Positions 26,097 through 64,000 of a stretch of DNA of 64,000 nt are shown here, one piece after another. Both the position numbers and the translations under genes were made by a program. The notes under the pieces were generated by a model that searched no databases, was not told the origin of the DNA, and saw nothing but the letters and a program-made list of their open reading frames with translations. Position 1 is the stretch's first letter. Each line of letters begins with the position of its first letter. Source of the DNA: Escherichia phage EPIMAM01; sequence record PQ493298; one strand, 5' to 3'.

Positions 26097-26119
26097 TTTA
26101 TTCTCCTTTGTTTGTGTAA

Positions 26120-26153
26120 GATAATACTATCACAAAGGAACCATACTGTAAAC
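26120..26153 (-). promoter_or_regulatory. T4 early-type promoter
   Basis: minus-strand GTTTAC at 26153-26148 with downstream TATTAT-like -10, upstream of 110-aa ORF. Confidence 0.45.
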
Positions 26154-26183
26154 AACTTTGTGCAATCTTTGGAAAATAAAAAA

Positions 26184-32894: not shown

Positions 32895-34482
<1,588 letters not shown>

Positions 34483-40704: not shown

Positions 40705-40724
40705 TTTATTCTCCTTAGTTGATA

Positions 40725-40759
40725 GGGTAATAGTATCACACTACTACCCTACTGTAAAC
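40725..40759 (-). promoter_or_regulatory. T4 early-type promoter
   Basis: minus-strand GTTTAC at 40759-40754 with TAGTAT/TATTAC -10-like region, upstream of 80-aa ORF. Confidence 0.45.
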
Positions 40760-41139
40760 TACTTTTTGAATGTTTTTCGCAAAAGTTCAATGATTTCGTC
40801 TACATTGTTTTCGTCAACAATGCAATGAATTTTTGTTACGCCAGAAACCTTGTCTTTGACTTCATCTTCTTCAGAAGTCGGTTCTTTATACTCACGAAAA
40901 CAATGAAATTCATCTTCGCAAATTTCTAAAAGTCTATCTTTAAGGTAAAAATGCTTTCCATTTGCGCATTCAATGTGTTTTACTGCTTTATATCCATTAG
41001 CGACGGAAACTTCTTTAACTTCAAACCATCCGCCATTATCTCGAATAGCTTTAACTATTGATGAATTGGAACGTGGGCTATAATTAATAAATGTATCAAT
41101 AAGTCTTGGAACAAGTTCATACTTTCGACCAGTATACAT
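40759..41139 (-). CDS. hypothetical protein (frd.3-like)
   Basis: 126 aa ORF. Confidence 0.5.
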   Translation of the reverse strand: MYTGRKYELVPRLIDTFINYSPRSNSSIVKAIRDNGGWFEVKEVSVANGYKAVKHIECANGKHFYLKDRLLEICEDEFHCFREYKEPTSEEDEVKDKVSGVTKIHCIVDENNVDEIIELLRKTFKK

Positions 41140-41432: not shown

Positions 41433-41446
41433 CAGCAGTATTGCCG

Positions 41447-41484
41447 ATAGTTGTATAGTACCATAGTTCTTGTGGCATGTAAAC
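41447..41484 (-). promoter_or_regulatory. T4 early-type promoter with A/T-rich UP element
   Basis: minus-strand GTTTAC (41484-41479) then TACTATAC -10 region; upstream A/T block; about 75 bp shared with 58282-58350. Confidence 0.55.
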
Positions 41485-41515
41485 CGTTTTGTGAAAAAAT
41501 TTTTGAAATAAAAAA

Positions 41516-41534
41516 GGGGACCTCTAGGGTCCCC
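41516..41534 (-). terminator. rho-independent terminator of gene 32
   Basis: GGGGACC-TCTAG-GGTCCCC followed on minus strand by TTTTTT. Confidence 0.7.
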
Positions 41535-41556
41535 AATTAATTAGTAATATAATTTA

Positions 41557-42465: not shown

Positions 42466-42548
42466 TTTTATTTCCTTTTTAATTTAATTAACAGTTGGTG
42501 CTATGACGATGTATGACCTCATAGCTGGTCAGTGAGATAATTATAATC

Positions 42549-42556
42549 TATTTATA
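42549..42556 (-). promoter_or_regulatory. candidate late promoter (TATAAATA on minus strand) upstream of gene 32
   Basis: plus-strand TATTTATA in 59/32 intergenic region, about 85 nt upstream of gp32 ATG. Confidence 0.4.
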
Positions 42557-42564
42557 ATAAGCAA

Positions 42565-50545: not shown

Positions 50546-53530
50546 ATGGCTACTTTAAAACAAATACAATTTAAAAGAAGCAAAACTGCAGGTCAACGTC
50601 CTGCTGCTTCAGTATTAGCCGAAGGTGAATTGGCTATTAATTTAAAAGATAAAACAATTTTCACAAAAGATGACTCAGGCAGTGTTATAGAATTAGGTTT
50701 AAAATATGGAGGAACAATTGATGGTTCTTTAACTGTTAATGGAAGTATAATTGGAAATTTAACAGGTAACGCTGCAACTGCAACGAAATTGCAAACACCT
50801 AGGAAAATTAATGGTATATCTTTTGATGGGTCAAAGGACATTACCTTAACTCCATCTGACATAAATGTCAATAGCACAACGTTTATAAAAAATAACGGCG
50901 AATTACCGGTTGATGCTAATTTAGATGAGTATGGGCCTGTTGAAGAATATCTTGGAGTTTGGTCGAAAGAAACTTCAACCAACGCTCAACCAGCAAATAA
51001 ATTTCCAGAAGAAAATGCTGTAGGTGTGCTAGAAGTATTTGTGGCCGGTCAATTTGCTGGTACTCAGAGATATACAACCAGATACGGAAATGTTTATATT
51101 CGTTCCTTGACTGCTACATGGAACGGAGTAAATGGTCCGTGGAGTGTGTGGCGAAATATTCAATCCGGTACTCGTCCACTGTCAACAACAATTGATCTTA
51201 ATGATCTAGGAGGTGCTGAACACTTTGGCTTGTGGAGGAATAGTTCAAATTCCATTGCTACCTTTGACAGAAATTTCCCAGAAGAGGGGTCGTCCGCTCA
51301 AGGTCTTTTGGAAGTATATGAAGGTGGAAACTATTCTCGTACGCAAAGATATACAACCAGATTTGGTGTTGTTTATACTCGCTGTCTTACTGCTGCGTGG
51401 AATGCTTCTGCGCCTAAATGGGGACCGTGGCAACAAGTCGGTAATGTCACACCGGCGACTTTCTATGACGGAGACCTGAATGATTTTAAAACTCCTGGGT
51501 TATATAATATTTTAGGTACTGATGCCGTTATTAACTGTCCTACAGGTGAAGGTTTACCAGCCGTTATTGTTGGTTTGCTGGAAGTTAAACAGCGTGCTTC
51601 TGGTGGTGCTATTTTCCAAAAATTTACTACTGCCGGAACAGGTACAACTACTCGCGGACGTATTTTTGAGCGTGCATACACTAATGGTGTTTGGGGTACA
51701 TGGAACGAAGTATATACATCTTATTCTCTGCCAATTACTTTGGGTATGGGTGGTATTAAAGCTCAATTAGCGGAGTTAGATTGGCAAGCCTTTGATTTTG
51801 TCCCTGGTAGTATGTTTAGCGTTCCTTTGAATAAAATAAAGAACATGCCAGCAAATATGGATTGGGGGACGATTGATGGAAACTTGGTTATGTTTTCTGT
51901 CGGTCCTAGCGAACATACTAGCACAGGGCGTACTGTTCAGGTTTGGCGTGGTACTGTATCCCAGACAAACTACCGTTATTTTGTCGTTCGTGTATTCGGT
52001 AATTCAGGAAATAGAACTTGCACAGTTCGTCGTGTTGTTCTTGAAGATGGTCGCCACAAATGGACAGCGCAGCAAGATTTTAATGGCGCAGTTAACTTCG
52101 GTGCTCCTACCAATTTTAACTCTACTGTTAACCTTAATAACACTACCACTTTTAAAACAGAAGTTAAATTCCGCTCATTGAATGCATTTAAAATGTACGG
52201 CGGTAAGTTTGGCGCAATTTTCCGTAATGATGGAGAGAGTCTTTATATTCTTTCCACCGACGAAGATGATCAAGATGGAAACTTTAATACAAATAGACCT
52301 TTCCGTTATGAATTGAGAACTGGTGATGTTACTTTAGGTGGTACTAGTGGTGCTAACGTTTTAAAATTAAAACGTGATTCTCTCACCGCATTTTTTGGTG
52401 GTGATATTAATATAAAAGGCTTGATGACTTTTGACGCTGGACGTTTAGGATCACGAGATTATTTTAAATTTAACCATTGGGGTGATAGTAATAATGCGCG
52501 TGATAACATTATTCAGTTAGAAGACAGCAAAGGAGTTCATTTTTCTACTGAACGTACTTTAGCGACTGGTGCAATTAAAACTAAATTCTTTGGTGAAGTT
52601 GAATCCGATGGTAGATTGATTATTAAACGTCCGGGTGATTCTATTGTATTATCAGCACCTGCTAGTAATTCTTTGCATATTCGTGGTGACGTAGACGGGA
52701 CTAATAACTGGTATATTGGTAAGGGTGGTGATGATAATGGATTAGCGTTCTATAGTTATGCTACTAATGCTGGTGTATACATTACAAACGCAGGAGATAT
52801 CACGCTAAGTCCAAAAGGCGTCGAAATGGCTCATGTTAATAACGTTCGATTATATGTTCATGGTGAACGTTGGACCGCTAGTCAACCAGGTGATTGGGGC
52901 AACCAATGGCGAGTAGAAGCGCCAATATTCGTCGATCATGGTTATGTTGGACCAGATAGTTATTATCCAATTATTAAAGGAAGAAGTGTAGTCACCAATC
53001 AAGGGTTTGTAACTGCCGTCGATCTTGGTATTCGTCGTATCCCTAATAATTGGGGACAAGCAATTATTCGTGTTGGATCTGCGGAGGCTTCTCCTGATGC
53101 TGGTCATCCTAACGCGATATTCGAGTTCCACTATGATGGGTTCTTTTATGCACCAGGAAATGGAAGTTTTAATGATGTGTATATTCGTTCCGATGGTCGT
53201 CTTAAGATTAATAAAAAAGAGCTAGAAAACGGAGCGGTTGAAAAAGTTTGCCGACTGAAAGTTTATACTTACGATAAAGTTAAGTCTATTAAAGACCGTA
53301 GTGTTATTAAACATGAAGTTGGTATTATTGCGCAGGATCTTGAAAAGGAATTGCCAGAAGCTGTATCTAAAGTTGAAGTTGATGGATCTGATGTTCTGAC
53401 AATTTCTAACTCTGCTGTGAATGCTCTTTTAATTAAGGCCATTCAGGAAATGAGCGAAGAAATTAAAGAATTGAAAACACCTTTCTTCACTAAAATTGCT
53501 CGTAAAATTAGCAATTATTTTAAATTCTAA
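50546..53530 (+). CDS. 37: long tail fibre distal subunit gp37 with C-terminal intramolecular chaperone domain
   Basis: 994 aa; N-terminus [42 protein letters not shown] (gp37 and gp12 share this); C-terminal [16 protein letters not shown] fits the S74-type autoproteolytic chaperone motif. Confidence 0.9.
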
Positions 53531-53536
53531 CAACAA

Positions 53537-53549
53537 GGGGCTTTGCCCC
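53537..53549 (+). terminator. hairpin after gene 37
   Basis: GGGGC-TTTG-CCCC followed by TTT; probably an attenuating structure since gene 38 follows. Confidence 0.4.
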
Positions 53550-53562
53550 TTTGGAGAAAATT

Positions 53563-54490
53563 ATGGCAGTAGTTGGTGTTCCTGGTTGGATTGGAAGTTC
53601 ATCCGTAAATGAAACAGGACAACGATGGATGAGTCAAGCGGCTGGTCAATTAAGATTGGGTGTTCCTTGCTGGATGAGTCAATTTGCAGGTCGCTCAAGA
53701 GAAATTATTCACACACTTGGAGCAGACCATAACTTCAATGGTCAATGGTTCCGAGATAGATGTTTTGAGGCAGGTAGTGCACCTATAGTGTTTAATATCA
53801 CCGGAAATTTGGTATCATATTCTAGAGATGTTCCTTTATTCTTCATGTATGGAGATACACCAAATGAATATGTTCAGTTGAATATTAGCGGTGGAGCTCA
53901 TATGTGGGGCAGAGGTGGACAAGGTGGATGGACTCATTCTGGTGGGGATGGTAATGGTCAACAGGGTGGGCATTGTATTCAAAATGACATTGGTGGTCGA
54001 TTAAGAATTAATAATGGTGGAGTAATTTGTGGCGGTGGCGGCGGTGGCGGCGGTATCGCTTCTCGTCCTCACTCTGGTGCAAACTGGAAAGATATTGGTG
54101 GCGGTGGAGGAAGACCATTTGGCCCAGGAGGTGGCGGTGGTTATTCAGGAGGCGCTGCTTCTTGGCGGCGGTGGCGGCGGTATCGCTTCTCGTCCTCACT
54201 CTGGTGCAAACTGGAAAGATATTGGTGGCGGTGGAGGAAGACCATTTGGCCCAGGAGGTGGCGGTGGTTATTCAGGAGGCGCTGCTTCTTACGATGGCCC
54301 AGGAGGTGGTTATAATTATGGTAATGCTCACTCCGGTCAGGGTGGTGATGCTGGTGCAAATGGACAAAATGCCTGGTATGATGGCGGTAAAGTACTAAAA
54401 GTCGGCGCTGGCGGCGCTGCTGGTTATGCCGTCATAGGATCAGCACCAACATGGCAAAATGTTGGAATAATATATGGTCCAAGAGTATAA
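53563..54490 (+). pseudogene. 38: gp38 receptor-binding adhesin (glycine-rich-motif type), reading frame broken by internal 127-bp tandem duplication
   Basis: ATG at 53563 ([13 protein letters not shown]...); frame 1 runs into W/R-rich nonsense after ...YSGGAAS and stops at 54315; the authentic C-terminus (…[25 protein letters not shown]…IYGPRV) continues in the +1 frame to 54490. Confidence 0.85.
54037..54290 (+). repeat. perfect 127-bp direct tandem duplication (2 copies) within gene 38
   Basis: 54037-54163 and 54164-54290 identical base for base; boundary ambiguous by 1 nt. Confidence 0.95.
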
Positions 54491-54521
54491 TTTTGAATAA
54501 ATATCCTTAAAAGGAGGGTCT

Positions 54522-55178
54522 ATGGCAGCACCTAGAATATCATTTTCGCCCTCTGATATTCTGTTTGGTGTTCTAGATCGCTTGTTCAAAGATAACGCTA
54601 CCGGGAAAGTTCTTGCTTCCCGGGTAGCTGTCGTAATTCTTTTGTTTATAATGGCGATTGTTTGGTATAGGGGAGATAGTTTCTTTGAGTACTATAAGCA
54701 ATCAAAGTATGAAACATACAGCGAAATTATTGAAAAGGAAAGAAATGCACGCTTTGAATCTGTCGCCCTGGAACAACTCCAGATAGTTCATATATCATCT
54801 GAGGCAGACTTTAGTGCGGTGTATTCTTTCCGCCCTAAAAACTTAAACTATTTTGTTGATATTATAGCATACGAAGGAAAACTACCTTCAACAATAAGTG
54901 AAAAATCACTTGGAGGATATCCTGTTGATAAAACTATGGATGAATATGCAGTTCATTTAAATGGACGTCATTATTATTCAAACTCAAAATTTGCTTTTTT
55001 ACCAACTAAAAAGCCTACTCCCGAAATAAATTACATGTACAGTTGTCCATATTTTAATTTGGATAATATCTATGCTGGAACAATAACCATGTACTGGTAT
55101 AGAAATGATCATATAAGTAATGACCGCCTTGAATCAATATGTGCTCAGGCGGCCAGAATATTAGGAAGGGCTAAATAA
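54522..55178 (+). CDS. t: holin t
   Basis: 218 aa, T4 holin length; single N-proximal TMD (VAVVILLFIMAIVWY) and large periplasmic domain. Confidence 0.92.
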   Translation: MAAPRISFSPSDILFGVLDRLFKDNATGKVLASRVAVVILLFIMAIVWYRGDSFFEYYKQSKYETYSEIIEKERNARFESVALEQLQIVHISSEADFSAVYSFRPKNLNYFVDIIAYEGKLPSTISEKSLGGYPVDKTMDEYAVHLNGRHYYSNSKFAFLPTKKPTPEINYMYSCPYFNLDNIYAGTITMYWYRNDHISNDRLESICAQAARILGRAK

Positions 55179-58238: not shown

Positions 58239-58279
58239 TTTTGTATCTCCGGGTTGTTTGTTTCAGTTCATTTATTTGA

Positions 58280-58316
58280 TAGTTGTATAGTACCACAGTA
58301 TGCTTTGGTTGTAAAC
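58280..58316 (-). promoter_or_regulatory. T4 early-type promoter with UP element
   Basis: minus-strand GTTTAC (58316-58311), TACTATAC -10; 40 nt upstream block identical to 41479-41518. Confidence 0.55.
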
Positions 58317-58347
58317 CGTTTTGTGAAAAAATTTTTGAAATAAAAAA

Positions 58348-58367
58348 GGGAGAGCCTCGGCTCTCCC
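58348..58367 (-). terminator. rho-independent terminator of gene 52
   Basis: GGGAGAGC-CTCG-GCTCTCCC followed on minus strand by TTTTTTAT. Confidence 0.7.
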
Positions 58368-58518
58368 TAAAATTACTGCATGACTGTGATAACTGTCATG
58401 ATAACACGTTGAATTCCGAACGCAAGAAGACCTCCTGCTACGGCAGGAACAACACCTAAACCCGCCAGTAAAATGCCACCAGATACTAATGCAGCGCTTG
58501 TAATACCTATGAATGGAC

Positions 58519-61405: not shown

Positions 61406-61429
61406 TTTCTGTTCCTCCGTAGTTGATAG

Positions 61430-61463
61430 GGTAATAGTACCACAGAGGAACAGTCTTGTAAAC
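61430..61463 (-). promoter_or_regulatory. T4 early-type promoter
   Basis: minus-strand GTTTAC (61463-61458), TACTATTAC -10-like; same sequence family as 40725-40759. Confidence 0.5.
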
Positions 61464-61648
61464 AACTTTTTTAAAAATATTCGTAATAAATGTGAATACC
61501 AATTACTACCGCTGAAACTTGTGCAACCCACCACACACAAGCAATAAGCACAGAATTCAAAATTTTCATAATAACCTCATTACAAAAGTAAATGTTAAAC
61601 AAATTAATGGAATACTAATTAACCAAACAAAACACCACCACAATGAAC

Positions 61649-61912: not shown

Positions 61913-61934
61913 TTTTACTCCTCCGTAGCTGATA

Positions 61935-61969
61935 GTTGTATAATACCACAGTCCTTGCGGTATGTAAAC
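61935..61969 (-). promoter_or_regulatory. T4 early-type promoter with UP element
   Basis: minus-strand GTTTAC (61969-61964), TATTATAC -10; A/T-rich upstream block. Confidence 0.5.
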
Positions 61970-61986
61970 CATTTTGTGAAAATTTT

Positions 61987-62544
61987 TTAAATGGAAAGAT
62001 ACCATCCGTTGTAGTTGCTTTTTCTTACAACCTTACGAAGGTCTTCTCTATCACCGATGAACTTCGGAGTGTACTGGATGACACCTGGATGAATTTCTTT
62101 AGTGTTGAATATAATTATACAGTCAGCGACCTGATGATTCAGAATGGGCCCTAGATTTATTCCAGAACCGTATGGATACTCTCCGCTGCATCCTGTTGTT
62201 ACAGAAATCCAACGTGAGTCAGTTTGATGTGTCTTAACTTCTACACGAAGCCCGCAGTATCTTGGATGCGCCAATACATCCCATGCGTATGTATACGGGT
62301 CATTAACATCCTCTTGGCCTTTGTTAACATACCCGCTTAGCCAATCTGCTACAAAAAACTCTGCGTACACCGCGATACGGCATCTTTCGATGACTTCTGC
62401 TTTATCCTGATTAGGATTTTGTTTTAAAGAGTATCTTGCTGTATCAGCAATTTTGACCTTCATTTCACTAGTCAAGTCACTGTTCGATAGGGTAAATGTC
62501 GGAATCTGAAATAGTCTCTGTAAACCCGGATTCGTTTTCTGCAT
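61987..62544 (-). CDS. denB: endonuclease IV (cytosine-DNA specific)
   Basis: 185 aa, T4 DenB length; position between ndd cluster and rIIB. Confidence 0.85.
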   Translation of the reverse strand: MQKTNPGLQRLFQIPTFTLSNSDLTSEMKVKIADTARYSLKQNPNQDKAEVIERCRIAVYAEFFVADWLSGYVNKGQEDVNDPYTYAWDVLAHPRYCGLRVEVKTHQTDSRWISVTTGCSGEYPYGSGINLGPILNHQVADCIIIFNTKEIHPGVIQYTPKFIGDREDLRKVVRKSNYNGWYLSI

Positions 62545-63060: not shown

Positions 63061-63999
63061 TTATTTAAATTGTTCAGTAACGTCTTCAACTACTTCGTAT
63101 TGGCAGGTACGCATTTTAGCATCGTTGTAATCAATCGGAATTGATACTACATCACGCGGATGCACTTTAACTTTTACAACTCGACTGGTTGAACTGCCAA
63201 AGTGACGAATATAAGATTTAGAACACACATGCAGACCACGAGAACAAGTTTGTGTATCATCGTCATTCACACGAGTACGTGGCATTTTAACTACTTTACC
63301 GGGACTGTTATCAAAAGTATTTGAATGACAGTCAAAGTAATTGCTGCGAACTACTTTCCAAGCATAGAAGTAACCATCTTCTGTAATTTCAATATCGTTT
63401 GCTACCAAGAAATCAAAGAGTCGAGATACCGCTTTTTGGCTTGGGTTTTCCAACAGATTTTCCAAGAACGGAAAATAAAATTCAAAGTTTTCGCCTTTTT
63501 CCATCGAATCGAGAATACGATCAACTAAACCAGACCGCAATTCAATATTTTGATAGAACAAGCTTCCACCTTCAATTCGAACATCACCGGAAATATATTT
63601 TTCAACAGCACGACGAACATTAATTTTTTGTGCCGCTTCTTCCAATTTATCTGCAACAAGCAGATTAAGAATTTCCTGGAAGTTTGAATGAGTATTAGGA
63701 GTTGCGTTATAAGTTACACCGTCAACAGTAATTGAAATGAATTTTTTAGATGCATTCCAAATAATGTCAGATTTAGCAACTGGAGCAATAACTGCATCGC
63801 TATTAACTTTAACTGTAATATCACCGCTAATAGTAACTTTGGAGCGCTCAGCTTCTTCAGCATTTTTCAAAACACGACGGATTGTGTCAACCGATACACC
63901 TTGCCAATCAGCCAATTCCTGTTGGGTATAATTACCACTTGAATACAGTTTGACAATTTCAGCTTGTTCGTTTTTGGTCAGGCATTTAATATTGTACAT
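63061..63999 (-). CDS. rIIB: rIIB rapid-lysis (RexAB exclusion resistance) protein
   Basis: 312 aa; N-terminus MYNIKCLTKNEQAEIVKLYSSGNYTQQELADWQGVSVDTIRRVLK; the window ends exactly at its start codon. Confidence 0.95.
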   Translation of the reverse strand: MYNIKCLTKNEQAEIVKLYSSGNYTQQELADWQGVSVDTIRRVLKNAEEAERSKVTISGDITVKVNSDAVIAPVAKSDIIWNASKKFISITVDGVTYNATPNTHSNFQEILNLLVADKLEEAAQKINVRRAVEKYISGDVRIEGGSLFYQNIELRSGLVDRILDSMEKGENFEFYFPFLENLLENPSQKAVSRLFDFLVANDIEITEDGYFYAWKVVRSNYFDCHSNTFDNSPGKVVKMPRTRVNDDDTQTCSRGLHVCSKSYIRHFGSSTSRVVKVKVHPRDVVSIPIDYNDAKMRTCQYEVVEDVTEQFK

Positions 64000-64000
64000 A

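Follow-up and report, generated by a model that had tools for sequence, protein, structure and literature searches.

An exact 127-bp tandem duplication in gene 38 of an Escherichia phage record is very probably an assembly artefact

The stretch of DNA analysed here, 64,000 nucleotides from the sequence record of Escherichia phage EPIMAM01 (the window), contains an exact tandem duplication of 127 bp within gene 38, the gene for the gp38 adhesin. The duplication is very probably an artefact of assembly and finishing and not a feature of the phage DNA. The phage itself most likely has one copy of the duplicated unit and an intact gp38 adhesin of 266 aa, and the deposited sequence probably exceeds the true one by 127 bases. 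A preliminary description of the window had listed an assembly error among several possible origins of the duplication; this option is now strongly favoured on two grounds that were absent from that description, the k-mer length used by the SPAdes assembler and the rotation of the record.

The duplication and the gene beneath it

Direct string comparison demonstrated that bases 54037-54163 (copy 1) and bases 54164-54290 (copy 2), both on the plus strand, are identical at 127/127 positions, with no spacer and with the join between 54163 and 54164. Positions 53400-54700 were read, and Tandem Repeats Finder detected one array at 54036-54290, with a period of 127, 2.0 copies, 100% matches and 0 indels. 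Both methods therefore agree with the original observation of two adjoining, identical 127-bp copies. The period-127 identity extends by 1 base leftward and by 0 bases rightward. An exact match of 127 bases cannot arise by chance, and no other long exact repeat was present in the 64-kb window. The duplicated unit spans gp38 codons 159-201, from the end of the GGGGGGGG run in GRM2 through HVS2 and GRM3 to the start of HVS3.

Since 127 is 3x42+1, the duplication results in loss of the reading frame after gp38 codon 201. As it stands in the window, gene 38 (53563-54315, plus strand) consists of 201 authentic codons, followed by 49 out-of-frame codons rich in W and R and a stop codon; the frame that opens at the ATG at 53563 encodes authentic gp38 up to ...GGYSGGAAS and then the W/R-rich tail, which ends at the stop at 54315. 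The authentic 3' end of the gene (54291-54490, plus strand; ...IYGPRV) is out of frame and belongs to a second ORF (54029-54490), in which the authentic gp38 C-terminus is encoded. Removal of one copy brings this 3' end back into frame and restores a single gp38 ORF of 266 aa. The ORF analysis was thus in full agreement with what had been read from the sequence beforehand, namely a broken frame from ATG 53563 with a W/R-rich tail and a stop at 54315, an authentic C-terminus in another frame that ends at 54490, and a 266-codon adhesin on deletion of one copy.

The gene underneath the duplication is an ordinary T2-type gp38, as had been proposed. Restored gp38 contained the Pfam domains Gp38_N (PF21721) at residues 1-42 and GP38 (PF05268) at residues 47-266, the latter matching profile positions 1-218 of 218, whereas the gp38 ORF as written matched GP38 profile positions 1-152 of 218 only. 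The restored protein was also similar to receptor-recognition proteins in the PDB (9v85, E=3e-72; 6f45, E=2e-49). The position of the gene is that of T2-type gp38. It is preceded by gene 37 (50546-53530, plus strand), which encodes the 994-aa distal long-tail-fibre subunit with the C-terminal Peptidase_S74 intramolecular chaperone typical of the T2-type arrangement, and it is followed directly by an intact gene t, encoding the holin (54522-55178, plus strand). Between genes 37 and 38, a GC-rich hairpin, AAGGGGCTTTGCCCCTTT, is found at 53535-53552, right after the gene 37 stop codon and ahead of the gene 38 ribosome-binding site; it resembles a terminator or an RNA-stability element.

The version of gp38 encoded in the window lacks GRM4, HVS4, GRM5 and the conserved C-terminal motif. 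Trojet et al. reported that amber mutants of T6 gene 38 truncated just upstream of GRM3 or GRM5 neither adsorb nor form plaques, and that loss of a single GRM or HVS was not recovered among 220 recombinants (PMC3157838). Given the segments lost and the phenotype of the T6 amber mutants, the allele as written should be null. Since the T6 truncations can neither adsorb nor form plaques, a propagated isolate could hardly carry the broken allele as its consensus sequence.

Assembly as the source of the second copy

The genomes of T4-like phages are circularly permuted and terminally redundant, and 127 is the largest k-mer in SPAdes. A 127-bp overlap generated by SPAdes on phage contigs has been described in four phage genome papers (PMC5923482, PMC7372960, PMC8104045, PMC9009655), two of which concern terminal repeats of 127 bp on such contigs (PMC8104045, PMC9009655). 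In the work describing CheckV, the lengths of terminal repeats were found to cluster at k-mer values, and assemblers were reported to open circular templates at random positions, leaving a repeat as long as k (PMC8116208).

In the mechanism that we propose for the duplication, a de Bruijn graph assembler would close the circularly permuted, terminally redundant genome into a circle and then write it out linearly from an arbitrary break, giving a contig whose first k bases equal its last k bases. With SPAdes run at its largest k-mer, k would be 127. If the contig break fell inside gene 38, and later rotation to the T4 origin left the overlap untrimmed, two identical 127-mers would lie head to tail within gene 38; an end-to-end join of two contigs adjacent in the graph, again untrimmed, would have the same outcome. 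Copy 1 would then represent the k-mer at the 3' end of the original contig, and copy 2 that at its 5' end. From the length of the repeat alone, we infer the use of SPAdes or of some other assembler with k=127, and the reads would presumably support one copy only. The duplication resembles a SPAdes k-mer end overlap in being 127 bp long, exact and arbitrarily positioned in a circularly permuted phage genome. Unlike the reported overlaps, which are found at contig ends and are trimmed, the two copies in the window are internal and adjoining, a position that would arise if the contig had been rotated or joined before trimming.

The end of the window bears on this rotation. The window was classed as Tequatrovirus (T4-like) and has 95-98% identity with many phages of Escherichia, Shigella and Yersinia. 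Its final bases, ...TTGTACAT|A, end 1 base past the start codon of rIIB, which lies on the minus strand; positions 63997-64000 comprise this start codon (CAT on the plus strand) and one further A, which corresponds to T4 position 1. The T4 record (NC_000866; 168,903 bp) and records that follow the T4 convention, such as that of fFiEco06, end exactly at the rIIB ATG. For an arbitrary 64-kb slice of a genome of ~167 kb, the chance of ending within a base of the rIIB point is ~2 in 100,000. Because an end at the rIIB ATG is so rarely expected by chance, the source record appears, from its terminal sequence, to have been re-originated to the T4 convention, at the rIIA/rIIB boundary, after assembly. 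Re-origination after assembly is the step required to bring an end overlap into the interior of a record.

The boundaries of the duplicated unit were then compared with each other. The left boundary lies inside the GGCGGCGGTGG run of GRM2, and the right boundary (...GCTTCTT|ACGATGG) lies in Ser-Tyr codons, outside any repeat. Upstream of copy 1 the sequence reads ...TTTGTGGCGGT, the unit itself ends in ...GCTGCTTCTT, and these two have the final T alone in common; the start of the unit (GGCGGCGG...) has nothing in common with the sequence past the unit (ACGATGGC...). This junction microhomology of 1 nt is about what chance gives. A 15-bp direct repeat, TGGCCCAGGAGGTGG, occurs at 54120 and 54295 and would have allowed an unequal exchange to happen naturally, but it is not an endpoint of the duplication. 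The lack of junction homology, together with the failure to use this 15-bp repeat, fits an arbitrary break and contradicts slippage or unequal recombination. It had been suggested that both copy boundaries fall on glycine-codon repeats, and this is correct for the left boundary, which is in the GGCGGCGGTGG run, but not for the right boundary, in its Ser-Tyr codons. Slippage or unequal recombination between such repeats, which had been offered as the origin of the duplication, was accordingly rejected in view of the single shared nucleotide, a right end outside any repeat of this kind and the unused 15-bp repeat.

The relatives examined were found to carry one copy of the unit. When a 1,301-base query was compared with 50,697 phage records, 40 of the 40 full-length matches listed spanned ~1,174 bases against the 1,301 of the query; the two lengths differ by 127, and the listed relatives are therefore single-copy. 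PBM-1 (PV029540) was the closest record among the listed matches, and the closest contig was a Logan contig (L007, SRR31305024) that was found via the exact gp35 protein of the window; both encode an intact gp38 of 266 aa. With one copy removed, the window gave a single collinear alignment with PBM-1 (99.74% over 13.2 kb) and with the Logan contig (99.81% over 18.3 kb). Judged by their sequences, the contigs with an identical gp35 are close relatives (<=99.8%) and belong to other phages, and they show the single-copy state for relatives only. In the best-matching phage records, a 120-base probe centred on the junction aligned only as two pieces, which fall on opposite ends of one unit.

Searches of wider collections gave similar results. 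The junction 40-mer was absent from IMG/VR and from JGI metagenome contigs, and neither complete E. coli genomes nor PLSDB plasmids yielded a match to the 501-base stretch that spans the repeat (53900-54400). Exact look-up of gp37, and of gp38 in both its broken and its restored form, gave no hit in a collection of 15 billion proteins. Among 100 or more relatives, no copy-number variation was detected at the gene 38 site, and relatives encode one uninterrupted gp38 of 260-266 aa.

As an artefact, the duplication would be without biological significance and would matter for data quality. Annotation would show the host-range determinant of the phage as a pseudogene or in two fragments, and this misannotation would mislead the prediction of receptors and host range, comparisons of gp38, pseudogene counts and machine learning on tail fibres. 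In phage or plasmid records that have been rotated, errors of this type could be flagged simply and generally by an exact tandem repeat, internal to the record and 55, 77, 99 or 127 bp long.

Biological explanations of the duplication

An improbable alternative is that the duplication is real and recent, was generated by illegitimate recombination or replication slippage, and was present in the sequenced population, for instance in a defective variant that persists through co-infection or in a transitional form in the evolution of host range. The location of the unit lends this explanation some weight, as the left boundary in the GGCGGCGGTGG run of GRM2 is near a natural mosaic breakpoint and gp38 evolves via recombination at GRMs (PMC3157838). 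Further, the unit holds the only two differences between gp38 and its nearest relatives, both of which are non-synonymous and located in HVS2, suggesting that the segment is under diversifying pressure. However, a real duplication would have to coincide exactly in length with the SPAdes k-mer, and would have formed with 1 nt of junction homology and a right end outside any repeat. It would also be out of frame, with loss of GRM4, GRM5 and the C-terminus, and would have to reach fixation as a lethal frameshift. Comparable truncations in T6 neither adsorb nor form plaques, and no such duplication was seen in the relatives or collections searched. That the duplication is physically in the stock, with, for example, complementation in high-multiplicity passages maintaining it at a high frequency, is quite improbable. 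If this were true, the duplication in the stock would be an unstable intermediate in the evolution of the adhesin, or the phage would infect without a complete gp38.

As a tandem copy in the receptor-recognition region of a tail-fibre gene, the duplication is similar to the T-even host-range duplications in T4 gp37 that Tetart et al. are said to have described. Work of this kind, including recombination at conserved motifs, is cited in PMC3157838. Those duplications reportedly keep the reading frame, have their endpoints in short motifs that are conserved, and give viable phages whose host range is altered. In contrast, the duplication in the window shifts the frame and lacks homology at its junction, and the resulting allele is predicted to be null.

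It is highly improbable that gene 38 is under the control of a reversible ON/OFF switch, in which gain or loss of a 127-bp copy by homologous recombination would toggle gp38. T4 recombination readily collapses perfect tandem repeats, and the two copies in a recombination-proficient T-even phage would be reversible in principle. However, the T6 amber mutants indicate that a virion in the OFF state would be unable to adsorb, which would keep it from propagating and reverting (PMC3157838), and the boundaries are without the extended homology that would regenerate the duplication recurrently. Phase-variable repeat loci have copy-number variation and a viable OFF state; unlike these loci, the gene 38 site was invariant in copy number among the relatives examined. 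The preliminary description had raised both a switch of this kind and a host-range intermediate, and both conflict with the T6 amber phenotype (PMC3157838) and with the single copy present in relatives.

It is barely conceivable that both copies are real and that gp38 is expressed by programmed frameshift or as two polypeptides, a reading that has in its favour the second ORF with the authentic C-terminus and nothing further, and that is opposed by the uninterrupted gp38 of relatives and by a PGII-type fold that needs all GRMs in one chain, as in the full-length alignments with 6f45 and 9v85.

Natural variation in gene 38 and other sites in the window

With one copy removed, gp38 of the window differed from that of PBM-1 and the Logan contig at two nucleotides only, 54062 and 54088, the twins of which in the second copy are 54189 and 54215. 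Both differences result in non-synonymous changes in HVS2, S167 in the window versus Y and K176 versus Q in PBM-1 and the Logan contig. These residues may reflect host-range adaptation, and they are the biologically relevant feature of the gene 38 locus. Population polymorphism at the two HVS2 sites was also considered as the factor that placed the break in the assembled circle, and it gained no support, as the vertex positions expected for a k=127 bubble miss the unit. The PBM-1 record (PV029540.1; L001) is labelled 'complete genome' and is 121,301 bp long, ~46 kb under the 165-170 kb typical of Tequatrovirus, and may be incomplete or mis-assembled.

More extensive variation was present in L003, L004, L006 and L008, four related contigs that are 98-99% identical to the window elsewhere and encode 260-aa variants of gp38. 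In these relatives, megablast homology ends at 54056, in GRM2, and resumes at 54406. From the alignments, this break would be a natural modular swap that exchanges HVS2-HVS4 as a block and has its breakpoints at conserved motifs, in line with the description by Trojet et al. (PMC3157838). The natural mosaic break at 54056 is within 20 bases of the left boundary of the duplicated unit.

A 15-mer, ATCGCTTCTCGTCCT, is shared between the gp38 unit, where it includes the window-specific Ser167 codon, and the minus strand at 33804-33818, and it encodes IASRP at both sites. The second site is inside an unrelated 386-aa ORF (32895-34055), and its flanks are unrelated to the gp38 unit. A shared 15-mer was found in 0 of 100 shuffles, and by our own estimate ~0.01 would be expected; the sharing is probably a coincidence.

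An extra ORF is located between the genes for gp32 and gp59 in L004 (1804-2436) and L005 (1796-2257), encoding 210 or 153 aa with no Pfam hit, and it is absent from the window near 42530-42560. This ORF is probably a mobile, homing-endonuclease-like insertion polymorphism.

The window also contains families of direct repeats of 70-100 nt, at 26105-26176, 40711-40782, 41446-41543, 58278-58375, 61415-61486 and 61921-62028. These repeats have conserved GATAG..TATAGTACCA...TGTAAAC cores, which read GTTTACA...TATAC on the minus strand, and they resemble early promoters of the T4 type accompanied by upstream elements.
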